Notes under the pieces: model-generated | Told to the model about the DNA's origin: nothing | Databases searched by the model: none | The model's input: the letters and a program-made list of their open reading frames with translations, nothing else | Origin: Escherichia phage vB_EcoP-101136BS1 | DNA: 39,375 nucleotides | Sequence record: MZ234024.1 | Direction: 5' to 3' (one strand) | Position numbers and translations under genes: made by a program | Shown here: positions 3,001 to 22,195 of the stretch, one piece after another | Numbering within the stretch: position 1 is the first letter of the stretch | How the letters are laid out: each line of letters starts with the position of its first letter

Positions 3001-3303
3001 CTTCCGCGCTCACCTACCGAGAAGACGGAGAAGCCAATCGCCTTTGGTGCTGCTTCCAGTGGTCCGGTAATGAATGTGGTCGGCAACTTCCTTGAGCAGG
3101 TCCCGGCTTTCGGCTATGCTGCTAACGTTGGTGCTACGGCTTACAACTTGGCGGGATACCTCAAGGCGGATACCCGTGTCAACGAGCGAGACTACATGAC
3201 CGGGATGTATAACACGTTCCGTGAACTTGTACCGAATGACCCGATTACCCAGAAGTTGCTGCTTGGAACGTTTGAGGAGCAGGGCATCCACATCAAGGAC
3301 TAA
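1..3303 (+). CDS. gp16: internal virion protein D (gp16), C-terminal 1100 codons; the 5' part of the same gene is at 38791..39375
   Basis: ORF is open from base 1 with no start. Translation shares long conserved blocks with T7 gp16 as recalled (LEARETARN, RSPTGMQSGASGK, RRVNGDIAIM, FFAKNAYMG, NGTTNYLLDA, DPRAMDLWR, ELVPNDP). Frame is continuous with the ORF running off the window end. Confidence 0.9.
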   Translation: MQEREDRSTWFGFGSATEAEVKNSMVGVAIRAGQTEDSLDVIGDVFNPTRWNNHKWSREELDQIRNAGVLPQYYGVITGGSPQNLTELINLALENQKLDQEKAKAGTGAQLAAGVIGAGVDPLTYVPIAGQVGKGGKLVNKMFTVAAQSGALAGASEIARTSVAGGDAHVAEAIMGGALFGGGMTAIGDAIGKALGKSTNEFAGPATRLEARETARNVDGQDLSRMPIREGEETFSHQGVKFADVPNEPGSVRLEDGSILIGENPLNPKTRKVFDEVIEPERAAAGVNLGGLTEIGLKLLRSENPEIRGVAADLVRSPTGMQSGASGKIGTTASDVFERLRAVDHRFYNDIDDAVTEALKDPYFQTAFWRDSGAFRQDIYQRVSMAIEDGSGNLKAELTPGELKVYDLLKNQFDAKREMMENPAMFGRPDAQSIFPGSRFKGTYVPHVYSNQMKELYIKELGSPEALQEAIKKSWLTSYASRPEVKKRVDEALLEADPTLTPEGLAAAVDKYANDKAYGISHTEQFERSSVMEENINGLVGLENNSFLEARNLFDSDMSIVLPNGQTFSVNNLREWDMDKIVPAYNRRVNGDIAIMAGTGKTTKDMKDLVETLMNKAGDDGKLKGEVSTLRDTLKILTGRARRDGADDAAFATVMRTMTDLSFFAKNAYMGVQNLTEIGGMLARGNVRAMLHGVPIFRDLAFRNKKVGASEIKDLHNVIFGKELDDSIRPSKQDVIDRLRSYSDLGRGTATALGTAKYYTGELAVRSPFTKVLNGTTNYLLDAGRQGFLSDIVEHSLTGSKRKFDDRWLKTAGISDEQWKGIKSLIRESVTRGPDGKYTIKDKKAFSQDPRAMDLWRMGDTIADETLLRPHKLSNMDAKAYGPIAKTVLQFKNFVIKSINGRTMRTFYNATKNNRAMDAALSTVMSMGLAGMYYMAQAHIKAYAMQDGRDREYLKQALNPTMIGYAALSRSSHLGGPLGVANILGGIAGYEDTKMLRSSILPRSPTEKTEKPIAFGAASSGPVMNVVGNFLEQVPAFGYAANVGATAYNLAGYLKADTRVNERDYMTGMYNTFRELVPNDPITQKLLLGTFEEQGIHIKD

Positions 3304-10240: not shown

Positions 10241-10265
10241 TAATTAACTTTGAGAGGATATAACT

Positions 10266-10772
10266 ATGGAACGTAATGCTAACGCATACTATGAGCTGCT
10301 GGCTGCAACCGTTGAGGCATTTATCGAGCGTATTCAGTACGACCACCTGACTCAAGATGACGACTACAGCGATGCGCTGCATGAGGTCGTAGACGGTCAG
10401 GTTCCTCACTATTACCACGAGATTTTTACGGTGATGGCTGCTGATGGTATAGACAACGAGTTCGAAGACTCTGGGATGATACCTGAAACCAAGGACGTAA
10501 CGCGTATCCTACAAGCTCGCATCTATGAGGCACTTTATAACGACGTGTCTAATAGCTTGGATGTAGTCTGGTTTGAGGATGAAGAGGCAGACGAAGAGGA
10601 TGAATATTGGGTAGTTGACGCTAAAACAGGCGCAATAATTGTGCAAGCTGTAGCTCTTGAGGTCGCTACTGCATGTGCCAAGGTTAACTATGCGGCAGGT
10701 CGCCACCTGAAGGTGGAAGACACCAATGATAACGTAGTGTTCGACCCTGCGGCTGAGGACTGCGAGCGATGA
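10266..10772 (+). CDS. ocr: Ocr-like anti-restriction DNA-mimic protein (gene 0.3) with a ~50-aa C-terminal extension
   Basis: [45 protein letters not shown] is near-identical to T7 Ocr as recalled. T7 Ocr is 117 aa; this ORF is 168 aa, continuing past the acidic tail. Confidence 0.85.
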
Positions 10773-10914
10773 TAACTTACGGTTTATGCCAGCACCACGT
10801 CACCAACGCCCGGCTTATGGTCAAGACCGGGCAGTTAGACCACGATTGGGCTATGCGTCTCTTGAAAGTGGTCTACAGGAGACGCAAGCGTATACACGAC
10901 AGTTTACACGCTAA

Positions 10915-10968
10915 GTGACAGACTACAGGTCATCAATGCTGGTGGCCTGACTGATAGTCATTAACAAC
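10915..10968 (+). repeat. repeated structured element, copy 3; candidate RNase III site
   Basis: AGACTACAGG ... GGCCTGACTGATAGTCATTAAC upstream of the 10982 start. Confidence 0.5.
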
Positions 10969-10981
10969 TGAGAGGGAAGAT

Positions 10982-11209
10982 ATGAACACAATCACTGGTG
11001 CCATAACCAAAGGTTTTCGAGCAATTTTCGGTGAAACGCAAGAAGTATGCACCAATCATAAATTCGTACTTTCTTGCGTAGCAGGTGACGAGTTTGACGG
11101 GTTCGATAAACTGGTGGTTTGCGACCATTGCGGACAAGAGGCTATCCAACACTCAAACGGTAAATTTGAATTAATAGACGATAGCCTTACAGAAGGAGAC
11201 GGCGAGTAA
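10982..11209 (+). CDS. hypothetical early protein, 75 aa, Cys-containing and acidic
   Basis: RBS GAGGGA; contains VCTNH and VVCDHCGQE, a possible small metal-binding fold. No homolog recognised. Confidence 0.55.
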   Translation: MNTITGAITKGFRAIFGETQEVCTNHKFVLSCVAGDEFDGFDKLVVCDHCGQEAIQHSNGKFELIDDSLTEGDGE

Positions 11210-12069: not shown

Positions 12070-14751
12070 ATGAGCGTCATCTCTATTGACAAGCACGACT
12101 TCTCTGATGTGTCGAACGCCATTGAGCCGTTTAACCTACTGGCTGACCACTACGGGCAAGACCTTGCAGTCAAACAGCTTCAGCTTGAGCACGAGGCATA
12201 CACTGAAGGCGAGCGACGTTTCATCAAGAACCTTGAGAGACAGACTGAGCGAGGGGAACTGGCAGACAATCAGGTCGCCAAGCCTTTGATGCAGACTCTA
12301 GTCCCTAAGATTGCGCAAGCCGTCAAGGAGTGGCATGAAGGTCCAGACGGGAAGCTGTCAACCTCTCGTCCGAGCGTAGCGTTCACCATGTTGAGCACTG
12401 AAGAGAAGGCCGTAAAGGTCCGCTCTTTGCGCATCTCCTGCGAGTCTGCTGCGGTTATCATACTGAAGGTCATACTCTCCAAGCTGGTCAAGCCTGAAGG
12501 GATACCGATTACACCGATGGCCTCAGCGATAGGTCGCACACTTGAGGACGAAATCCGCTTCGGTCGCATCCGTGACAAGGAGAAAGAGCACTTCAAGAAG
12601 GCGATAGCTGATAACCTGAATAAGCGGGCCGGGGCGTCCTACAAGAAAGCCTACATGCAAGCGGTCGAGGCATCCATGCTGGAGCAAGGCCAACTGGAAG
12701 ATGCGTGGGGGACTTGGAGTCCGACCGAGGCTGTCCACGTTGGAATCAAGATGCTGGAGATTGTCATCCAGTCCACACAACTGGTCGAGCTTAAGCGTTA
12801 CGGTGCTGGCAATGCAGCGGCTGACGTTGAGATGGTCCACCTGTCAGACTTCTGGGTCAAGAAGATGGCACAACGAGGATTCAGCCTTGCGGGTATAGCT
12901 CCAGTCTACCAGCCTTGCGTCGTTCCACCTAAGCCGTGGACTGGTGTCGTAGGCGGTGGGTACTGGGCCAAAGGACGCAGACCATTACCACTGATTCGCT
13001 TAGGGTCTAAGTCTGCGGTAGCACGCTACGAAGACGTGTATATGCCTGAAGTCTATGACGCTGTGAACATCATTCAGAATACACCTTGGAAAGTGAACAA
13101 GAAGGTTCTGGAAGTGGTGAACATGGTCGAGAAGCTGAACAACACGCCTATTGATGACATCCCTCAGATGGAACCGCTGAAGCCTGAGGACTATGCGGGT
13201 GAGACTGAAGAAGAACTCAAGGCATGGAAGAAGGCTGCTGCTGGTATCTATCGCCGCGAGAAGGCCAGACAGTCACGAAGATTGTCACTGAGCTTTATCG
13301 TCAACCAAGCGAACAAGTTCTCTCAGTTCAAGGCCATCTGGTTCCCGTATAACATGGACTGGCGCGGTCGCGTCTACGCTGTGCCGATGTTCAACCCTCA
13401 GGGTAACGACATGCAAAAGGGTCTTCTGACTCTGGCAGTCGGTAAGCCTATTGGTGCTGATGGTTTCAAATGGCTGAAGGTCCACGGTGCAAACTGCGCG
13501 GGTGTCGATAAAGTCACCTTCGAGGAGCGTATCAAGTGGGTGGAAGATAACCACGACAACATCATGGCTGCTGCCAAGGCACCGATGGATAGCATTGAGT
13601 GGTGGGGCAAGTTAGACTCTCCGTTCTGCTTCCTAGCGTTCTGCTTCGAGTATGCTGGCGCAATGCACCACGGCTTGTCTTACTCCTGCTCGCTGCCGAT
13701 AGCGTTCGATGGGTCCTGCTCTGGGATTCAGCACTTCAGCGCTATGCTTCGCGACCACATCGGTGGACATGCAGTAAACCTGACGCCATCCGGTAAGGTC
13801 CAAGACATCTACCGCATCGTGTCTGACCGCATTGAGGAGGAGCTTAAAGTCCTACTGGTTAACGGTACGGACAACGAGATGGTAACTCACGAGGACAAGA
13901 AAACTGGTGAGATTACCGAGCGTCTCAAGCTGGGGACACGAGAGCTTGCCCGTCAGTGGCTGACCTACGGTATGTCACGAAAGGTCACTAAGCGTTCGGT
14001 CATGACTCTGGCCTACGGGTCGAAAGAGTACGGCTTCGCAGACCAAGTTTACGAGGACATCGTGATGCCAGCGATTGACTCAGGGTCTGGCGCTATGTTC
14101 ACTGAACCAAGCCAAGCATCTCGCTTCATGGCTAAGATGATTTGGGAAGCTGTGAGTGTGACCGTAGTTGCTGCGGTTGACGCGATGAAATGGCTTCAGG
14201 GTGCTGCCAAGCTGCTTGCTGCTGAAGTGAAGGACAAGAAGACTGGAGAAATCCTGAAGCCTTGTCTTCCGGTACACTGGGTCACACCTGATGGTTTCCC
14301 TGTCTGGCAGGAATACCGCAAGAAGGACACCACTCGTCTGAACCTGATGTTCTTAGGGTCATTCAACCTTCAGCCTACCGTCAACAAAGGCACGAAGAAA
14401 GAGCTGGACAAGCACAAGCAGGAGTCAGGCATTAGCCCGAACTTCGTCCACTCACAAGATGGTAGCCACCTGCGGAAGACTGTAGTCCACACTCACCGCA
14501 AGTATGGCGTGATGTCATTCGCAGTGATTCACGATAGCTTCGGGACCATCCCTGCTGACGCTGAGTATCTGTTCCGTGGTGTCCGTGAGACGATGGTCGA
14601 GACATACCGCGATAACGATGTGCTGCTTGACTTCTACGAGCAGTTTGAATACCAGCTTCATGAAAGCCAGCGCGACAAGTTGCCTGAGCTTCCGAAGAAA
14701 GGTAAACTGAATATCGAAGACATCTTGTCTTCAGACTTTGCATTCGCTTAA
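12070..14751 (+). CDS. gp1: single-subunit DNA-directed RNA polymerase (gene 1)
   Basis: 893 aa (T7 RNAP is 883); conserved C-terminus ...HDSFGTIPADA...DFAFA and specificity-loop region TRLNLMFLGSFNLQPT (T7: TRLNLMFLGQFRLQPT). Confidence 0.97.
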   Translation: MSVISIDKHDFSDVSNAIEPFNLLADHYGQDLAVKQLQLEHEAYTEGERRFIKNLERQTERGELADNQVAKPLMQTLVPKIAQAVKEWHEGPDGKLSTSRPSVAFTMLSTEEKAVKVRSLRISCESAAVIILKVILSKLVKPEGIPITPMASAIGRTLEDEIRFGRIRDKEKEHFKKAIADNLNKRAGASYKKAYMQAVEASMLEQGQLEDAWGTWSPTEAVHVGIKMLEIVIQSTQLVELKRYGAGNAAADVEMVHLSDFWVKKMAQRGFSLAGIAPVYQPCVVPPKPWTGVVGGGYWAKGRRPLPLIRLGSKSAVARYEDVYMPEVYDAVNIIQNTPWKVNKKVLEVVNMVEKLNNTPIDDIPQMEPLKPEDYAGETEEELKAWKKAAAGIYRREKARQSRRLSLSFIVNQANKFSQFKAIWFPYNMDWRGRVYAVPMFNPQGNDMQKGLLTLAVGKPIGADGFKWLKVHGANCAGVDKVTFEERIKWVEDNHDNIMAAAKAPMDSIEWWGKLDSPFCFLAFCFEYAGAMHHGLSYSCSLPIAFDGSCSGIQHFSAMLRDHIGGHAVNLTPSGKVQDIYRIVSDRIEEELKVLLVNGTDNEMVTHEDKKTGEITERLKLGTRELARQWLTYGMSRKVTKRSVMTLAYGSKEYGFADQVYEDIVMPAIDSGSGAMFTEPSQASRFMAKMIWEAVSVTVVAAVDAMKWLQGAAKLLAAEVKDKKTGEILKPCLPVHWVTPDGFPVWQEYRKKDTTRLNLMFLGSFNLQPTVNKGTKKELDKHKQESGISPNFVHSQDGSHLRKTVVHTHRKYGVMSFAVIHDSFGTIPADAEYLFRGVRETMVETYRDNDVLLDFYEQFEYQLHESQRDKLPELPKKGKLNIEDILSSDFAFA

Positions 14752-17470: not shown

Positions 17471-17808
17471 TGGCATATTGTGATAGCACCACATACTGTG
17501 AAGCATGTAATGGTGATGACCGCTTCCCACACGTTGGTAAACTTGTAGGTAACAAGCTGCAAGAAATTGATGGTGTACGCAAGCCATCCCACTATCAGGT
17601 CTTTGATGGCGTGGAATCCATTGAGATTATCGCACGGTCAATGACTGTGAGTGAGTTCCGTGGGTTCTGCATGGGTAACGTCCTGAAGTATCGACTCCGG
17701 GCTGGTAAGAAGTCAGAGCTGGCAACTATGGAGAAGGACCTGAACAAAGCAGCCTTCTATCAGGAGCTGTTCGACCTGCATAAAGGTAAGTGCTATGCTT
17801 CCGAGTGA
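17467..17808 (+). CDS. gp1.7: gp1.7-like protein (nucleotide kinase family), 113 aa, shorter than T7 gp1.7
   Basis: KPSHYQVFDGVESIEIIARSMTVSEFRGFCMGNVLKYRLRAGKKSELATMEKDL closely matches the C-terminal half of T7 gp1.7 as recalled. Confidence 0.75.
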   Translation: MMAYCDSTTYCEACNGDDRFPHVGKLVGNKLQEIDGVRKPSHYQVFDGVESIEIIARSMTVSEFRGFCMGNVLKYRLRAGKKSELATMEKDLNKAAFYQELFDLHKGKCYASE

Positions 17809-17890
17809 GTGGTGTGAAATGATGTTCGAGAAGACAGGTAACACTGACTACCTTGAATTGTATAACCAGTGGAAGGAGCGCGGTTTATGA
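17795..17890 (+). CDS. possible gp1.8-like small protein, 31 aa
   Basis: Short ORF between gp1.7 and gp2 whose stop overlaps the gp2 ATG. Confidence 0.3.
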
Positions 17891-18045
17891 CTGAGGTTGA
17901 GAAGAAATACATCGTGGAGCTTGAGGGTCGCGTTCAGTCCTTCGAGGTTCCGTTGTACGCAAAGTCTCTTGAAGAGGCTACACTGAAGTCCCAAGAGTAT
18001 GAGGACGCTGGGTTTGTGGTCGGACGGATTCGCCCTGAGACCTAA
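17887..18045 (+). CDS. gp2: Gp2-like inhibitor of host RNA polymerase
   Basis: 52 aa; [14 protein letters not shown]...[10 protein letters not shown] matches T7 Gp2 SFEVPIYAETLDEA...AGFEVTRVRP. Below the ORF-track size cutoff. Confidence 0.7.
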
Positions 18046-18062
18046 CTATCACTGTAGGACAG
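18040..18062 (+). promoter_or_regulatory. variant phage promoter (CTAACTATCACTGTAGGACAG; phi2.5 position)
   Basis: Consensus with TGTAGG in place of TATAGG, located before the SSB gene. Confidence 0.5.
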
Positions 18063-18102
18063 ACGTCCAGTTAGTAACTTTTAAATTAGGAGATTTACAC
18101 CG

Positions 18103-18795
18103 ATGGCTAAAGAGAAACTGAAGACTTTCACCACTCCGGTAGCTGGTATCGTTGAGCCTTACGCATGGCTGAACAAAGCAGACACCAAGTTTAACGAGCG
18201 TGGTGAGCATAAGGTTAACCTGACATTCGACCTGAGCGACCCGAAGGTCCGTAAGATGATTGATGTCTTACAGAAGATTCACGACGATGCGTATGCGAAA
18301 GCACTCGCAGACCACGAGAAGAACCCACCTCAGGTTCAGCGTGGCAAGAAGCCTATTGAACCACGTGAAGGCGACATGCCGTGGATTGAGAATGGTGACG
18401 GTACTGTTACCCTTAAGTTTAAATGCTTTGCGTCTTACCTGAAAGACGGCAAGTCCGAGCCTATCGTATTACGGTTCTACGACACCGATGCTAAACTCAT
18501 CCGTGACGTCCCGAATATCTGCGCTGGGTCTAAGATGAAGGTCAAGTTTAAAGTCCTGCCGTTCAAGTGGAACGCTGCGACTGGTGCAAGCGTTAAGCTC
18601 CAGCTTGAGTCCTGCCTTCTGGTAGAACTGAAGGAGTGGAAAGGCGATGGTGGTGATGGTGGCTGGGGTGATGATGAAGACCTTGGTACTGGCTACAAAG
18701 CGCCAACCGATGGTGACTTCGGTGACGATGACTTCGGTGACGATGGTTCCGAAGGTGGTGACGACTCCAACTCTGGTGGCGATTACGACTTCTAA
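18103..18795 (+). CDS. gp2.5: single-stranded DNA-binding protein (gp2.5) with an extended Gly/Asp-rich acidic C-terminal tail ending in DF
   Basis: 230 aa; acidic tail ...GDDDFGDDGSEGGDDSNSGGDYDF with a terminal Phe as in T7 gp2.5; position between gp2 and endonuclease I. Confidence 0.85.
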   Translation: MAKEKLKTFTTPVAGIVEPYAWLNKADTKFNERGEHKVNLTFDLSDPKVRKMIDVLQKIHDDAYAKALADHEKNPPQVQRGKKPIEPREGDMPWIENGDGTVTLKFKCFASYLKDGKSEPIVLRFYDTDAKLIRDVPNICAGSKMKVKFKVLPFKWNAATGASVKLQLESCLLVELKEWKGDGGDGGWGDDEDLGTGYKAPTDGDFGDDDFGDDGSEGGDDSNSGGDYDF

Positions 18796-19247
18796 TGGCC
18801 CAATGGTCTGCAAAACGGGGGCACTCTGTGGGTGCCTACCGCTCTGGACTTGAAGCCAAGAACCAGCAGTGGCTGGAACAGAACGGCGTCAAAGCGGAGT
18901 ACGAAAGCCATTATATCAACTATGTGATTCCGGCTTCCGACCACAAGTACACACCAGACTTTATCCTTCCAAACGGTATCATCGTGGAGACCAAAGGTAT
19001 CTTCGATAGTGATGACCGTAAGAAGCACCTTCTGGTACGAGAACAGCACCCAGAGTTAGACATCCGGTTCGTGTTCTCAAGTTCACGCTCCAAGTTATAC
19101 AAAGGGTCTCCAACCACGTATGGCGCATGGTGCGAAAAGAACGGCTATAAGTATGCCGATAAATTCATCCCGGTTGAGTGGCTTCGAGAGGCGACTGTAC
19201 GTCTGCCTTCAGGTATACTCATCCCCAAGAAGAAAGGAGTTAAGTGA
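18795..19247 (+). CDS. gp3: endonuclease I (Holliday junction resolvase, gp3)
   Basis: 150 aa (T7 is 149); YTPDFILPNGIIVETKG...EWL conserved. Confidence 0.9.
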   Translation: MAQWSAKRGHSVGAYRSGLEAKNQQWLEQNGVKAEYESHYINYVIPASDHKYTPDFILPNGIIVETKGIFDSDDRKKHLLVREQHPELDIRFVFSSSRSKLYKGSPTTYGAWCEKNGYKYADKFIPVEWLREATVRLPSGILIPKKKGVK

Positions 19248-19738
19248 TGAGCAAGAAGTTTAAACTGTTAGTAGATGCGCATGGCTGGCCTAGTGGGACT
19301 ATAGTTACCAAGTGTGAGAATGACCCCGTACCAGATTCAAGAATGACCCTAGTTGAGTGCCAGATTCCAGGCGCATACAAACATGGGTCTAACGGCGGCA
19401 ATACTCAGCCTGAGGGTATGTGGGGAGCATGGGTCCTTAATTGGAAACTTGAGGAAATCAAGCCGGAAGAGAAACTCACTGGTGTCCAAACCACTCAAGT
19501 CCTGCCAGCTTCGAGCGTACCGCCTGTGACTTTGAAGCGTGAAGTCCTGACCATCGACAAGATTGGTGTAGGCCAGACGTTCATCGTCCATGGAAAGCCT
19601 GAAGAAGTTTACGTGAAGATTAGCAACTCACACGTCTTCAACCATAAGCATCTCCAGATGCACACCACGGACGCACAACGCTTCACCCAGCACCTGAATC
19701 TGGTTGTCGTAGAATTGGTGGTGTACAATGGTAAGTAA
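19244..19738 (+). CDS. hypothetical protein, 164 aa, between endonuclease I and the amidase
   Basis: Start overlaps the gp3 stop and the stop overlaps the amidase start; no recognisable motif. Confidence 0.6.
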   Translation: MMSKKFKLLVDAHGWPSGTIVTKCENDPVPDSRMTLVECQIPGAYKHGSNGGNTQPEGMWGAWVLNWKLEEIKPEEKLTGVQTTQVLPASSVPPVTLKREVLTIDKIGVGQTFIVHGKPEEVYVKISNSHVFNHKHLQMHTTDAQRFTQHLNLVVVELVVYNGK

Positions 19739-20186
19739 GGTACAGTTCAATCCACGGTCCCGGACCGACGCTATCTTCGTACACTGTTCGGCTACCAAGC
19801 CAGAGATGGACATCGGGGTAGAGACCATCCGTATGTGGCACAAGCAGCAAGGCTGGCTGGACGTAGGCTACCACTTTATCATCAAGCGCGATGGCACTGT
19901 GGAAGAGGGACGCCCGGTCAATGTCGTAGGGTCACACGTTAAGGACTGGAACTCACGGTCTGTAGGCGTCTGCCTTGTAGGTGGAATTGACGCTAAGGGC
20001 AAGTTTGAAGCTAACTTCACTCCGGCCCAGATGAACTCCCTGCGCAACAAGCTGGCTGACCTGAAGGTCCTGTATCCTCAGGCAGAAATCAAAGCACACC
20101 ATGACGTAGCACCTAAGGCGTGTCCAAGTTTTGACTTGCAACGCTGGCTGTCTACCAATGAACTGGTCACTTCCGACCGTGGTTAA
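19728..20186 (+). CDS. gp3.5: N-acetylmuramoyl-L-alanine amidase / T7 lysozyme (gp3.5)
   Basis: 152 aa; DAIFVHCSATKP, WLDVGYHFIIKRDGTVEEGR, GVCLVGGID, HHDVAPKACPSFDL, NELVTSDRG nearly identical to T7 lysozyme. Confidence 0.95.
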   Translation: MVSKVQFNPRSRTDAIFVHCSATKPEMDIGVETIRMWHKQQGWLDVGYHFIIKRDGTVEEGRPVNVVGSHVKDWNSRSVGVCLVGGIDAKGKFEANFTPAQMNSLRNKLADLKVLYPQAEIKAHHDVAPKACPSFDLQRWLSTNELVTSDRG

Positions 20187-20210
20187 TAAACTCTAAGGGA
20201 GAACAACCCA

Positions 20211-20426
20211 ATGATTAAACTTATCGAATTTCTTGGTCGTCTGGTGGTGCGTGGTTATCGTCGTGCTGCGGTACGGGAACGAAAGGTAGAAAAGAAGACT
20301 GCGGACGGTGCGGCTGATGCTGCTGCTCTGGCTGACAAGCTGACCATCGCGTCACTGGAAGCTGGCATGAAGGCGCGTCAGGCTGACACCAAAGCCGACC
20401 AGTTGTCTCAGTTCTTCAAAGCCTAA
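20211..20426 (+). CDS. hypothetical protein, 71 aa (T7 gene 3.8 position, but no HNH motifs)
   Basis: ORF with N-terminal hydrophobic segment and Ala/Lys-rich helix. Confidence 0.5.
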   Translation: MIKLIEFLGRLVVRGYRRAAVRERKVEKKTADGAADAAALADKLTIASLEAGMKARQADTKADQLSQFFKA

Positions 20427-20444
20427 ACTATCACCTTAGGGATG
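20422..20444 (+). promoter_or_regulatory. variant phage promoter (CCTAAACTATCACCTTAGGGATG)
   Basis: Upstream consensus intact, but the -4..-1 region is CTTA instead of TATA. Confidence 0.45.
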
Positions 20445-20491
20445 GGACCGTGAGTCCTGTCCCTCTGTTCGCATTTGTGATTAAGGAGTGA

Positions 20492-22195
<1,704 letters not shown>

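Follow-up and report, generated by a model that had tools for sequence, protein, structure and literature searches.

In phage T7, the gene for endonuclease I (gene 3, 10258–10707) runs directly into the gene for the amidase (gene 3.5, 10707–11162), with no gene between them. In K1F and EcoDS1, a protein annotated as gp3.2 and catalogued as PHROG 16385 is encoded between these two genes, and Cronobacter phage Dev2 carries a short form of the protein (PHROG 15211). Other well-described phage proteins offer points of comparison for a protein at this position. T7 gp2, gp5.5, gp5.7, gp5.9 and gp4.5 are small, single-domain, non-essential class II proteins that bind host proteins; none of them is known to be subject to cassette swapping. 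The internal proteins of T4 combine a conserved capsid-targeting sequence with a variable anti-restriction body. A further comparison for the exchange of variable parts beside constant ones is offered by a preprint on diversity hotspots in phage genomes (bioRxiv 10.1101/2024.10.15.618418).

Here we analyse the corresponding locus of Escherichia phage vB_EcoP-101136BS1 (record MZ234024.1; 39,375 nucleotides, hereafter the window). Its sequence opens at the ATG of a 1100-amino-acid (aa) late-region open reading frame (ORF), a circular permutation of the T7 and K1F convention, so that coordinates in the window are not directly comparable with those of K1F. The RNA polymerase gene is found at 12070–14751.

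Between the gene for gp3 (18795..19247, plus strand), whose homologues in K1F, EcoDS1 and other phages bear the annotation endonuclease I, and the gene for gp3.5, an N-acetylmuramoyl-L-alanine amidase (19728..20186, plus strand), the ORF listing of the window contains a plus-strand frame that spans 19244..19738 and encodes 164 aa when read from a GTG. The original prediction held that the amidase gene follows endonuclease I directly in T7 and that here an ORF fills the gap, overlapping the gp3 stop and the amidase start, and both statements agree with what we find. The TGA of gp3 (19245–19247) has 1 nt in common with an ATG at 19247, and the ORF overlaps the amidase gene, which starts with an ATG at 19728, by 11 nt. 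The frame given in that prediction is present, but its start is probably one codon too early. The most likely start is the ATG at 19247, not the in-frame GTG at 19244, because this ATG is where the identical protein in the database (P0001) begins, as do the orthologues of K1F and EcoDS1. The coding sequence of gp3.2, as we call the product, would then run from 19247 to 19738 on the plus strand and comprise 163 codons and a TAA stop (19736–19738). Inspection of the sequence places a Shine–Dalgarno motif, AAGGAG (19234..19239, plus strand), 7 nt 5′ of the ATG, and this motif and the overlaps of start and stop codons are consistent with coupled translation.

Length is weak evidence of coding for this ORF, because 8 minus-strand ORFs in the window reach 120–184 aa. 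Chance frames of this kind are the one argument for regarding the gp3.2 ORF as a chance frame or a decaying remnant, a reading that we consider extremely improbable and that the selection pattern refutes. Across 13 genes with the same N-terminal module as the window (type A, see below), dN/dS in the C-terminal domain is about 0.08 (dS about 0.5, dN about 0.04). Also against a non-functional ORF are the presence of the C-terminal domain in every Kayfunavirus-type genome (219 versus 218 by count), the Shine–Dalgarno motif with overlaps into both neighbours, and a confident fold prediction for the N-terminal domain. The case for coding draws on the synonymous excess in the C-terminal domain among homologues at the same position and on a full-length match to a phage protein family (phrog_16385). 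That gp3.2 is a genuine protein-coding gene under selection, as had been predicted, is well supported by these sequence comparisons.

The family is already deposited, named and catalogued. An identical protein (100%) is recorded as QZI79902.1, ‘hypothetical protein 101136BS1_035’ (P0001), and the best relative in the phage collection, from LM33_P1, is 99.4% identical. Identity to the K1F and EcoDS1 proteins is 79–87%, and the DNA flanking gp3.2 is 95–97% identical to that of other vB_EcoP phages and LM33_P1. In profile searches, residues 1–163 align with the whole of phrog_16385 (E = 2.3e-94; profile positions 1–157 of 157), and residues 94–163 align with positions 5–74 of the 74-aa family phrog_15211 (E = 4.3e-39). 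The taxonomy retrieved for relatives is Kayfunavirus or unclassified. The ORF is almost certainly the orthologue of the Kayfunavirus (K1F-like) gp3.2, with the same two-part architecture and the same place between genes 3 and 3.5 as in K1F and EcoDS1; the N-terminal loop residues differ, and nothing else of substance does. The short gp3.2 of Dev2 differs from the protein described here in lacking the N-terminal module. Two records of K1F disagree at this gene: in DQ111067.1 the match covers residues 1–141 only, in a feature labelled ‘unknown’, whereas AM084414.1 has a full, annotated 157-aa gp3.2. The discrepancy is probably a sequencing or frameshift difference.

The gene is annotated as gp3.2 in K1F and EcoDS1 and as gp3.2 or ‘hypothetical’ in Dev2, PE3-1 and SH3; across sources, the names given to gp3.2 proteins are all ‘hypothetical’, ‘uncharacterized’ or ‘phage protein’. 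No Pfam family matched gp3.2 at E values of up to 10, relatives with other N-terminal modules gave only sub-threshold matches to unrelated Pfam families, and NCBIfam returned no significant match. The best match in a profile search of the Protein Data Bank (PDB), to the helicase HAS1 (E = 0.8), is noise. We found no HNH motif or profile in gp3.2 (the Pfam and NCBIfam searches were blank), and the HNH genes of PH1061 and PE3-1 are separate ORFs that adjoin the gp3.2 locus. No Rfam family matched positions 17500–21000 of the window, which gives no sign that the conservation of gp3.2 stems from an RNA element. Our literature search returned no statement on the function or expression of gp3.2 in searchable papers, and for anti-defence in Kayfunavirus it returned Ocr alone. 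The description of the gene as unassigned, with no recognizable motif, is thus accurate with respect to function, as no source gives one and neither Pfam, NCBIfam nor the PDB profiles supply a function-bearing family. With respect to novelty it does not stand, given QZI79902.1, the homologous gp3.2 of K1F and EcoDS1, and PHROG families 16385 and 15211. The absence of an enzyme signature is well supported. In the papers searched, we found no description of the genus-wide core status of the gene or of its cassette-like, fast-evolving N terminus.

gp3.2 lies in a unit bounded by two phage promoters. A phi2.5-type promoter for the phage RNA polymerase (18040..18058, plus strand; a match to the EcoDS1 consensus) opens the unit, and a second (20422..20440, plus strand; an exact match to an EcoDS1-annotated promoter) precedes gene 4 and closes it. 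Between them are the genes for the single-stranded DNA-binding protein (SSB) gp2.5 (18103–18795), gp3, gp3.2, gp3.5 and gp3.7 (20211–20426), with no further phage promoter; the gene for the primase/helicase gp4 follows at 20495–22195. Matches of the EcoDS1 type, with core AACTATCACTATAGG, number 11 in the window, against 0.01 expected by chance. They start at 3299, 8562, 11978, 15299, 17165, 18040, 20422, 26400, 29239, 30221 and 35004, all on the plus strand, and together constitute a full promoter map of the genome. Within the gp2.5–gp3.7 unit, we found no sigma-70-like site, and the frequency of terminator-like sites did not exceed that of shuffled sequence. It is well supported, from sequence, that gp3.2 is a middle (class II) gene, positioned so that the phage RNA polymerase would transcribe it along with the genes for the SSB, endonuclease I and the amidase. 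A search of the window for tRNA genes returned none; in Enterobacter phage EV136_1 (L011), the depositor labelled a misc_feature between gp3.7 and the primase/helicase gene as ‘tRNA’ (2512–2590).

To define how widely gp3.2 occurs, we compared its distribution with that of the RNA polymerase. In a tblastn search of the phage collection, the C-terminal domain was found in 219 phage records. RNA polymerases at least 80% identical to that of the window were found in 218 records, below which there is a clean gap to ≤64%, where T7 (62.6%) and all other genera of the Autographiviridae fall. Because the two counts match, the C-terminal domain appears to be a core gene of Kayfunavirus that is absent outside the genus; the sequence data indicate this core status. 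We did not find the domain outside T7-like phage sequences. When 1.84 billion cluster representatives were searched with a profile, only 16 clusters (50% identity) came back, all of the gp3.2 family, and a further profile search, started from the C-terminal domain, contributed just 3 divergent members. A scan of 185,579 species of bacteria and archaea, each represented by one genome, found no relative.

The order endonuclease I (gene 3), gp3.2, amidase (gene 3.5) is shared by the window, K1F, EcoDS1, Kc166A, PE3-1, Dev2 and others, and by distant metagenomic members. Even P0149 and P0150, which are the most divergent members with retrieved contigs (43–46% identical to the query in the C-terminal domain), are encoded between endonuclease I and amidase. 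Additional genes are present around the locus in some phages. Escherichia phage PH1061 (L007) has two HNH genes (1745–2116 and 2684–2905), one between gp3.2 and the amidase gene and another after the amidase gene; PE3-1 (L010) has an HNH gene upstream of gene 3 (871–1068); and Salmonella phage PRF-SP5 (L012) has, at the junction of gp3.2 and the amidase gene, an ORF of 149 aa that bears no annotation (1784–2233). This junction appears to be a recurrent insertion site. Two records labelled Enterococcus phage EFA-1 and Acinetobacter phage vB_Aba_01KA have a Kayfunavirus-like arrangement, in which gp3.2 is flanked by T7-type genes for endonuclease I and amidase. As Enterococcus and Acinetobacter are implausible hosts for an enterobacterial genus, the host labels are likely to be wrong or the samples contaminated.

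One possible role for gp3.2 would be to work with gp3.5, either as a detached, SH3b-like cell-wall-binding subunit of the amidase or as a modulator of the interaction between lysozyme and RNA polymerase. Of the 10 phage genomes compared, 8 have gp3.2 directly 5′ of the amidase start, as does a distant metagenomic member (L002); the predicted folds of gp3.2 are SH3-like; and the RNA polymerase of Kayfunavirus differs from its T7 counterpart (the 62.6% identity given above). We nevertheless consider such a partnership improbable. Neither an SH3b nor any other Pfam family matches gp3.2 (E up to 10), the adjacency is interrupted by the HNH gene in PH1061 and the 149-aa ORF in PRF-SP5, and gp3.2 is joined just as tightly to endonuclease I upstream. 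When the sequence is read by eye, no signal peptide or membrane segment is evident.

The constant part of the protein is its C-terminal domain (residues 94–163; 19526..19735, plus strand), which is predicted to form a small, six-strand SH3-like barrel. At around 70 aa, it corresponds to the entire 74-aa gp3.2 of Dev2-type phages. The motif SNSH.FN....Q.H.T...RF is unchanged in all of 28 diverse sequences; the residues of the domain that never vary are Y122, S126, N127, S128, H129, F131, N132, Q137, H139, T141, R145 and F146, and M138 and T140, which complete the stretch QMHTT, are conserved in at least 90% of members. The domain is mildly basic, with a pI of 9.0–10.2 in most members. It is preceded by a Pro/Ser-rich linker (residues 73–93; 19463..19525, plus strand), delimited using alignments A1 and A3 and modelled with low confidence by AlphaFold2. 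The first part of the linker varies in length. The second, QVLPASSVPP, is conserved: P87, A88, S90, P92 and P93 are invariant in alignment A1 (types A and A+D), and the stretch is kept, with occasional substitutions, alongside modules B, C2 and D.

Structure prediction suggests that gp3.2 consists of two small SH3-like β-barrels joined by this linker. The N-terminal domain was predicted confidently (AlphaFold2), and the model has the five strands of an SH3-like barrel. The C-terminal model has a core pLDDT of about 90 and a mean of 78, from a shallow alignment of 28 sequences, and resembles SH3-like barrels weakly. Fold searches returned only generic SH3-like barrels (PDB) or uncharacterized phage proteins (BFVD). 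The likeness to eukaryotic SH3 domains, FeoA, KOW, the C-terminal domain of ribosomal protein L2, EF-P domain I and Tudor domains is one of predicted fold only: identity is 4–17% to SH3 domains and up to 20% over all listed matches, and gp3.2 has no profile match to the SH3, SH3b, KOW or Tudor families of Pfam.

A basic barrel encoded in an SSB–endonuclease I–amidase–primase unit could be a nucleic-acid-binding accessory, in which the C-terminal domain binds DNA, RNA or the acidic tails of gp2.5 and gp4 and modulates recombination, junction resolution or the breakdown of host DNA with endonuclease I. The gp2.5 and gp4 proteins of the window end in acidic tails (...DYDF and ...DTDF, respectively); in T7, tails of this type mediate replisome contacts, and a small basic domain such as the C-terminal one of gp3.2 might have them as ligands. 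The pI of the domain, a predicted fold like that of the nucleic-acid-binding barrels of KOW, L2, EF-P and Tudor type, and invariant Ser, Asn, His, Thr and Arg residues that would suit phosphate contacts are all in keeping with such a function, and a genus-wide core gene fits a housekeeping role. We regard this explanation as possible but rather doubtful: the net charge is just +2 to +4, with one divergent member neutral; T7 and all other genera do without gp3.2; and a fast-evolving, swappable N-terminal module is left unexplained.

That module is the exchangeable part of the protein. In the window it is of type A (residues 1–72; 19247..19462, plus strand) and is predicted to form a five-strand SH3-like barrel with a conserved core (GWP.GT.VT.C..DP...LVE...G...HG..G...QP.GMWGAW) and hypervariable loops. 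In addition to type A, we classified N-terminal modules as types B, C2, D and E; the N-terminal parts of the divergent proteins P0130, P0135, P0148 and P0149/P0150 are further ones, outside the formal comparison. Type A occurs in 54 records of the phage collection, D in 27, C2 in 21, E in 4 and B in 2; the other ~111 records comprise short proteins and rare types. The N-terminal module is missing, and gp3.2 is 74–76 aa in length, in about half of the genus. One lineage (P0059, P0103, P0107 and P0110) has modules A and D in tandem, and natural in-frame deletions (P0122, P0138 and P0139) have removed most of module A and kept the C-terminal domain. Three metagenomic ORFs (P0131, P0132 and P0134) have only the start of module A, followed by unrelated sequence (for example, ...ESGGSRTGGVQW), and look like frameshifted or misassembled copies of gp3.2.

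Comparison of the window with PH1061, PRF-SP5 and phiHAO1-1, all of which have modules other than type A, shows how the module is exchanged. DNA identity through gp3 is 83–100% (mostly 93–100%), drops mostly to 0–60% from position 19245 to about 19485–19540, and then returns mostly to about 90%. The N-terminal module has thus been replaced as a cassette, with sharp boundaries and almost identical DNA on either side. Pairwise comparison of all modules and the C-terminal domain (hhalign) gave probabilities of 11% or less for every pair and thus no detectable homology, and we rejected on this basis the idea that the N- and C-terminal modules are diverged repeats of one domain. We also rejected the idea that the N-terminal modules occur elsewhere in phage genomes, as tblastn places each of them at the gp3.2 locus only.

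The two domains also differ in how they evolve. Nei–Gojobori estimates for the gp3.2 of the window against nine phages gave, for the C-terminal domain, dS of 0.14–0.84 (1.5 for Dev2) and dN of 0.017–0.13 (0.25 for Dev2). At dS of 0.14–0.84, conservation of this domain at the level of DNA, through an overlapping signal or a recent sweep, was rejected. Among the 13 type-A genes, dN/dS is 0.20 in the linker and 0.24 in the N-terminal domain, where dS is saturated; recombination and the saturated dS blur these estimates. In the four closest pairs, dN/dS for the whole N-terminal domain is 0.84, 2.34, 0.83 and 0.94, compared with about 0.13 or below for the C-terminal domain. In the core of the N-terminal barrel, pN is 0.00–0.09 versus pS of 0.00–0.42 (mostly 0.14–0.42), and the changes sit in the loops. 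As the set of hypervariable loop positions was picked post hoc, an excess of pN over pS within it is circular, and the whole-domain ratios alone are unbiased.

Rapid change and loss could mean that the N-terminal module is a liability: host immune sensors would recognize it, its alteration or loss would be escape, and the C-terminal domain would have the sole function. About half of the genus does without the module, natural in-frame deletions exist, dN/dS in the loops is high and the cassette is replaced as a unit, all of which would be expected of a liability. This explanation is unlikely in our judgement. Simple loss should win, yet at least five folded modules are kept in frame with conserved cores, and one lineage (the A+D tandem proteins) has two.

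Our own reading, which we hold tentatively, is that gp3.2 is a non-enzymatic adaptor with a constant core and a variable head that acts in host takeover or counter-defence. The C-terminal barrel would bind a non-varying partner through its invariant polar patch (SNSH / QMHTT / RF); this partner would either take part in the DNA or RNA transactions of the phage itself or be a host molecule that is strongly conserved. The barrel at the N terminus would be an add-on specificity module that contacts, or is seen by, a variable host factor. Exchange of the N-terminal cassette and loop change at the pace of silent sites would follow because the module would face such a factor. The C-terminal barrel is sufficient alone in about half of the genus, in which gp3.2 is just 74 aa. 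Weighing against the adaptor, SH3-like folds are so general that they reveal little of what is bound, and a genus-wide core is atypical of counter-defence genes, which are usually patchy, so that patchiness fits the N-terminal module only.

By analogy, T7 gp2, gp5.5, gp5.7, gp5.9 and gp4.5 would be the nearest counterparts of such an adaptor, as they are likewise small and non-enzymatic, encoded among genes of DNA metabolism and placed behind phage promoters; they have no sequence or detected fold relationship to gp3.2. The constant-anchor and variable-payload design of the T4 internal proteins resembles gp3.2 in its in-frame fusion of a conserved and a replaceable part, whereas gp3.2 has its constant part at the C terminus, as a folded domain that also occurs as a stand-alone protein. 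It is conceivable, at rather low probability, that gp3.2 is the founding example of a modular adaptor, in which a genus-wide SH3-like domain, docked on a conserved machine of phage or host, bears an interchangeable, positively selected SH3-like head that would neutralize or evade strain-specific host factors such as defence systems, and that the junction of genes 3 and 3.2 is a dedicated site for counter-defence cassettes in Kayfunavirus.

Therapy-oriented work and phage engineering make use of Kayfunavirus phages such as K1F, LM33_P1 and CLB_P1. gp3.2 is one of many conserved hypothetical proteins of phages, and the combination of core status with a cassette-like N terminus will be of little surprise to a specialist in T7-like phages; its value is as a well-delimited experimental target. 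As a core gene with a swapped, hypervariable module, gp3.2 is a reasonable candidate determinant of strain range after adsorption. Should the N-terminal module face the host, module type could be of help in predicting or engineering host range; should growth depend on the C-terminal domain, the domain would mark a genus-specific step that T7 skips.
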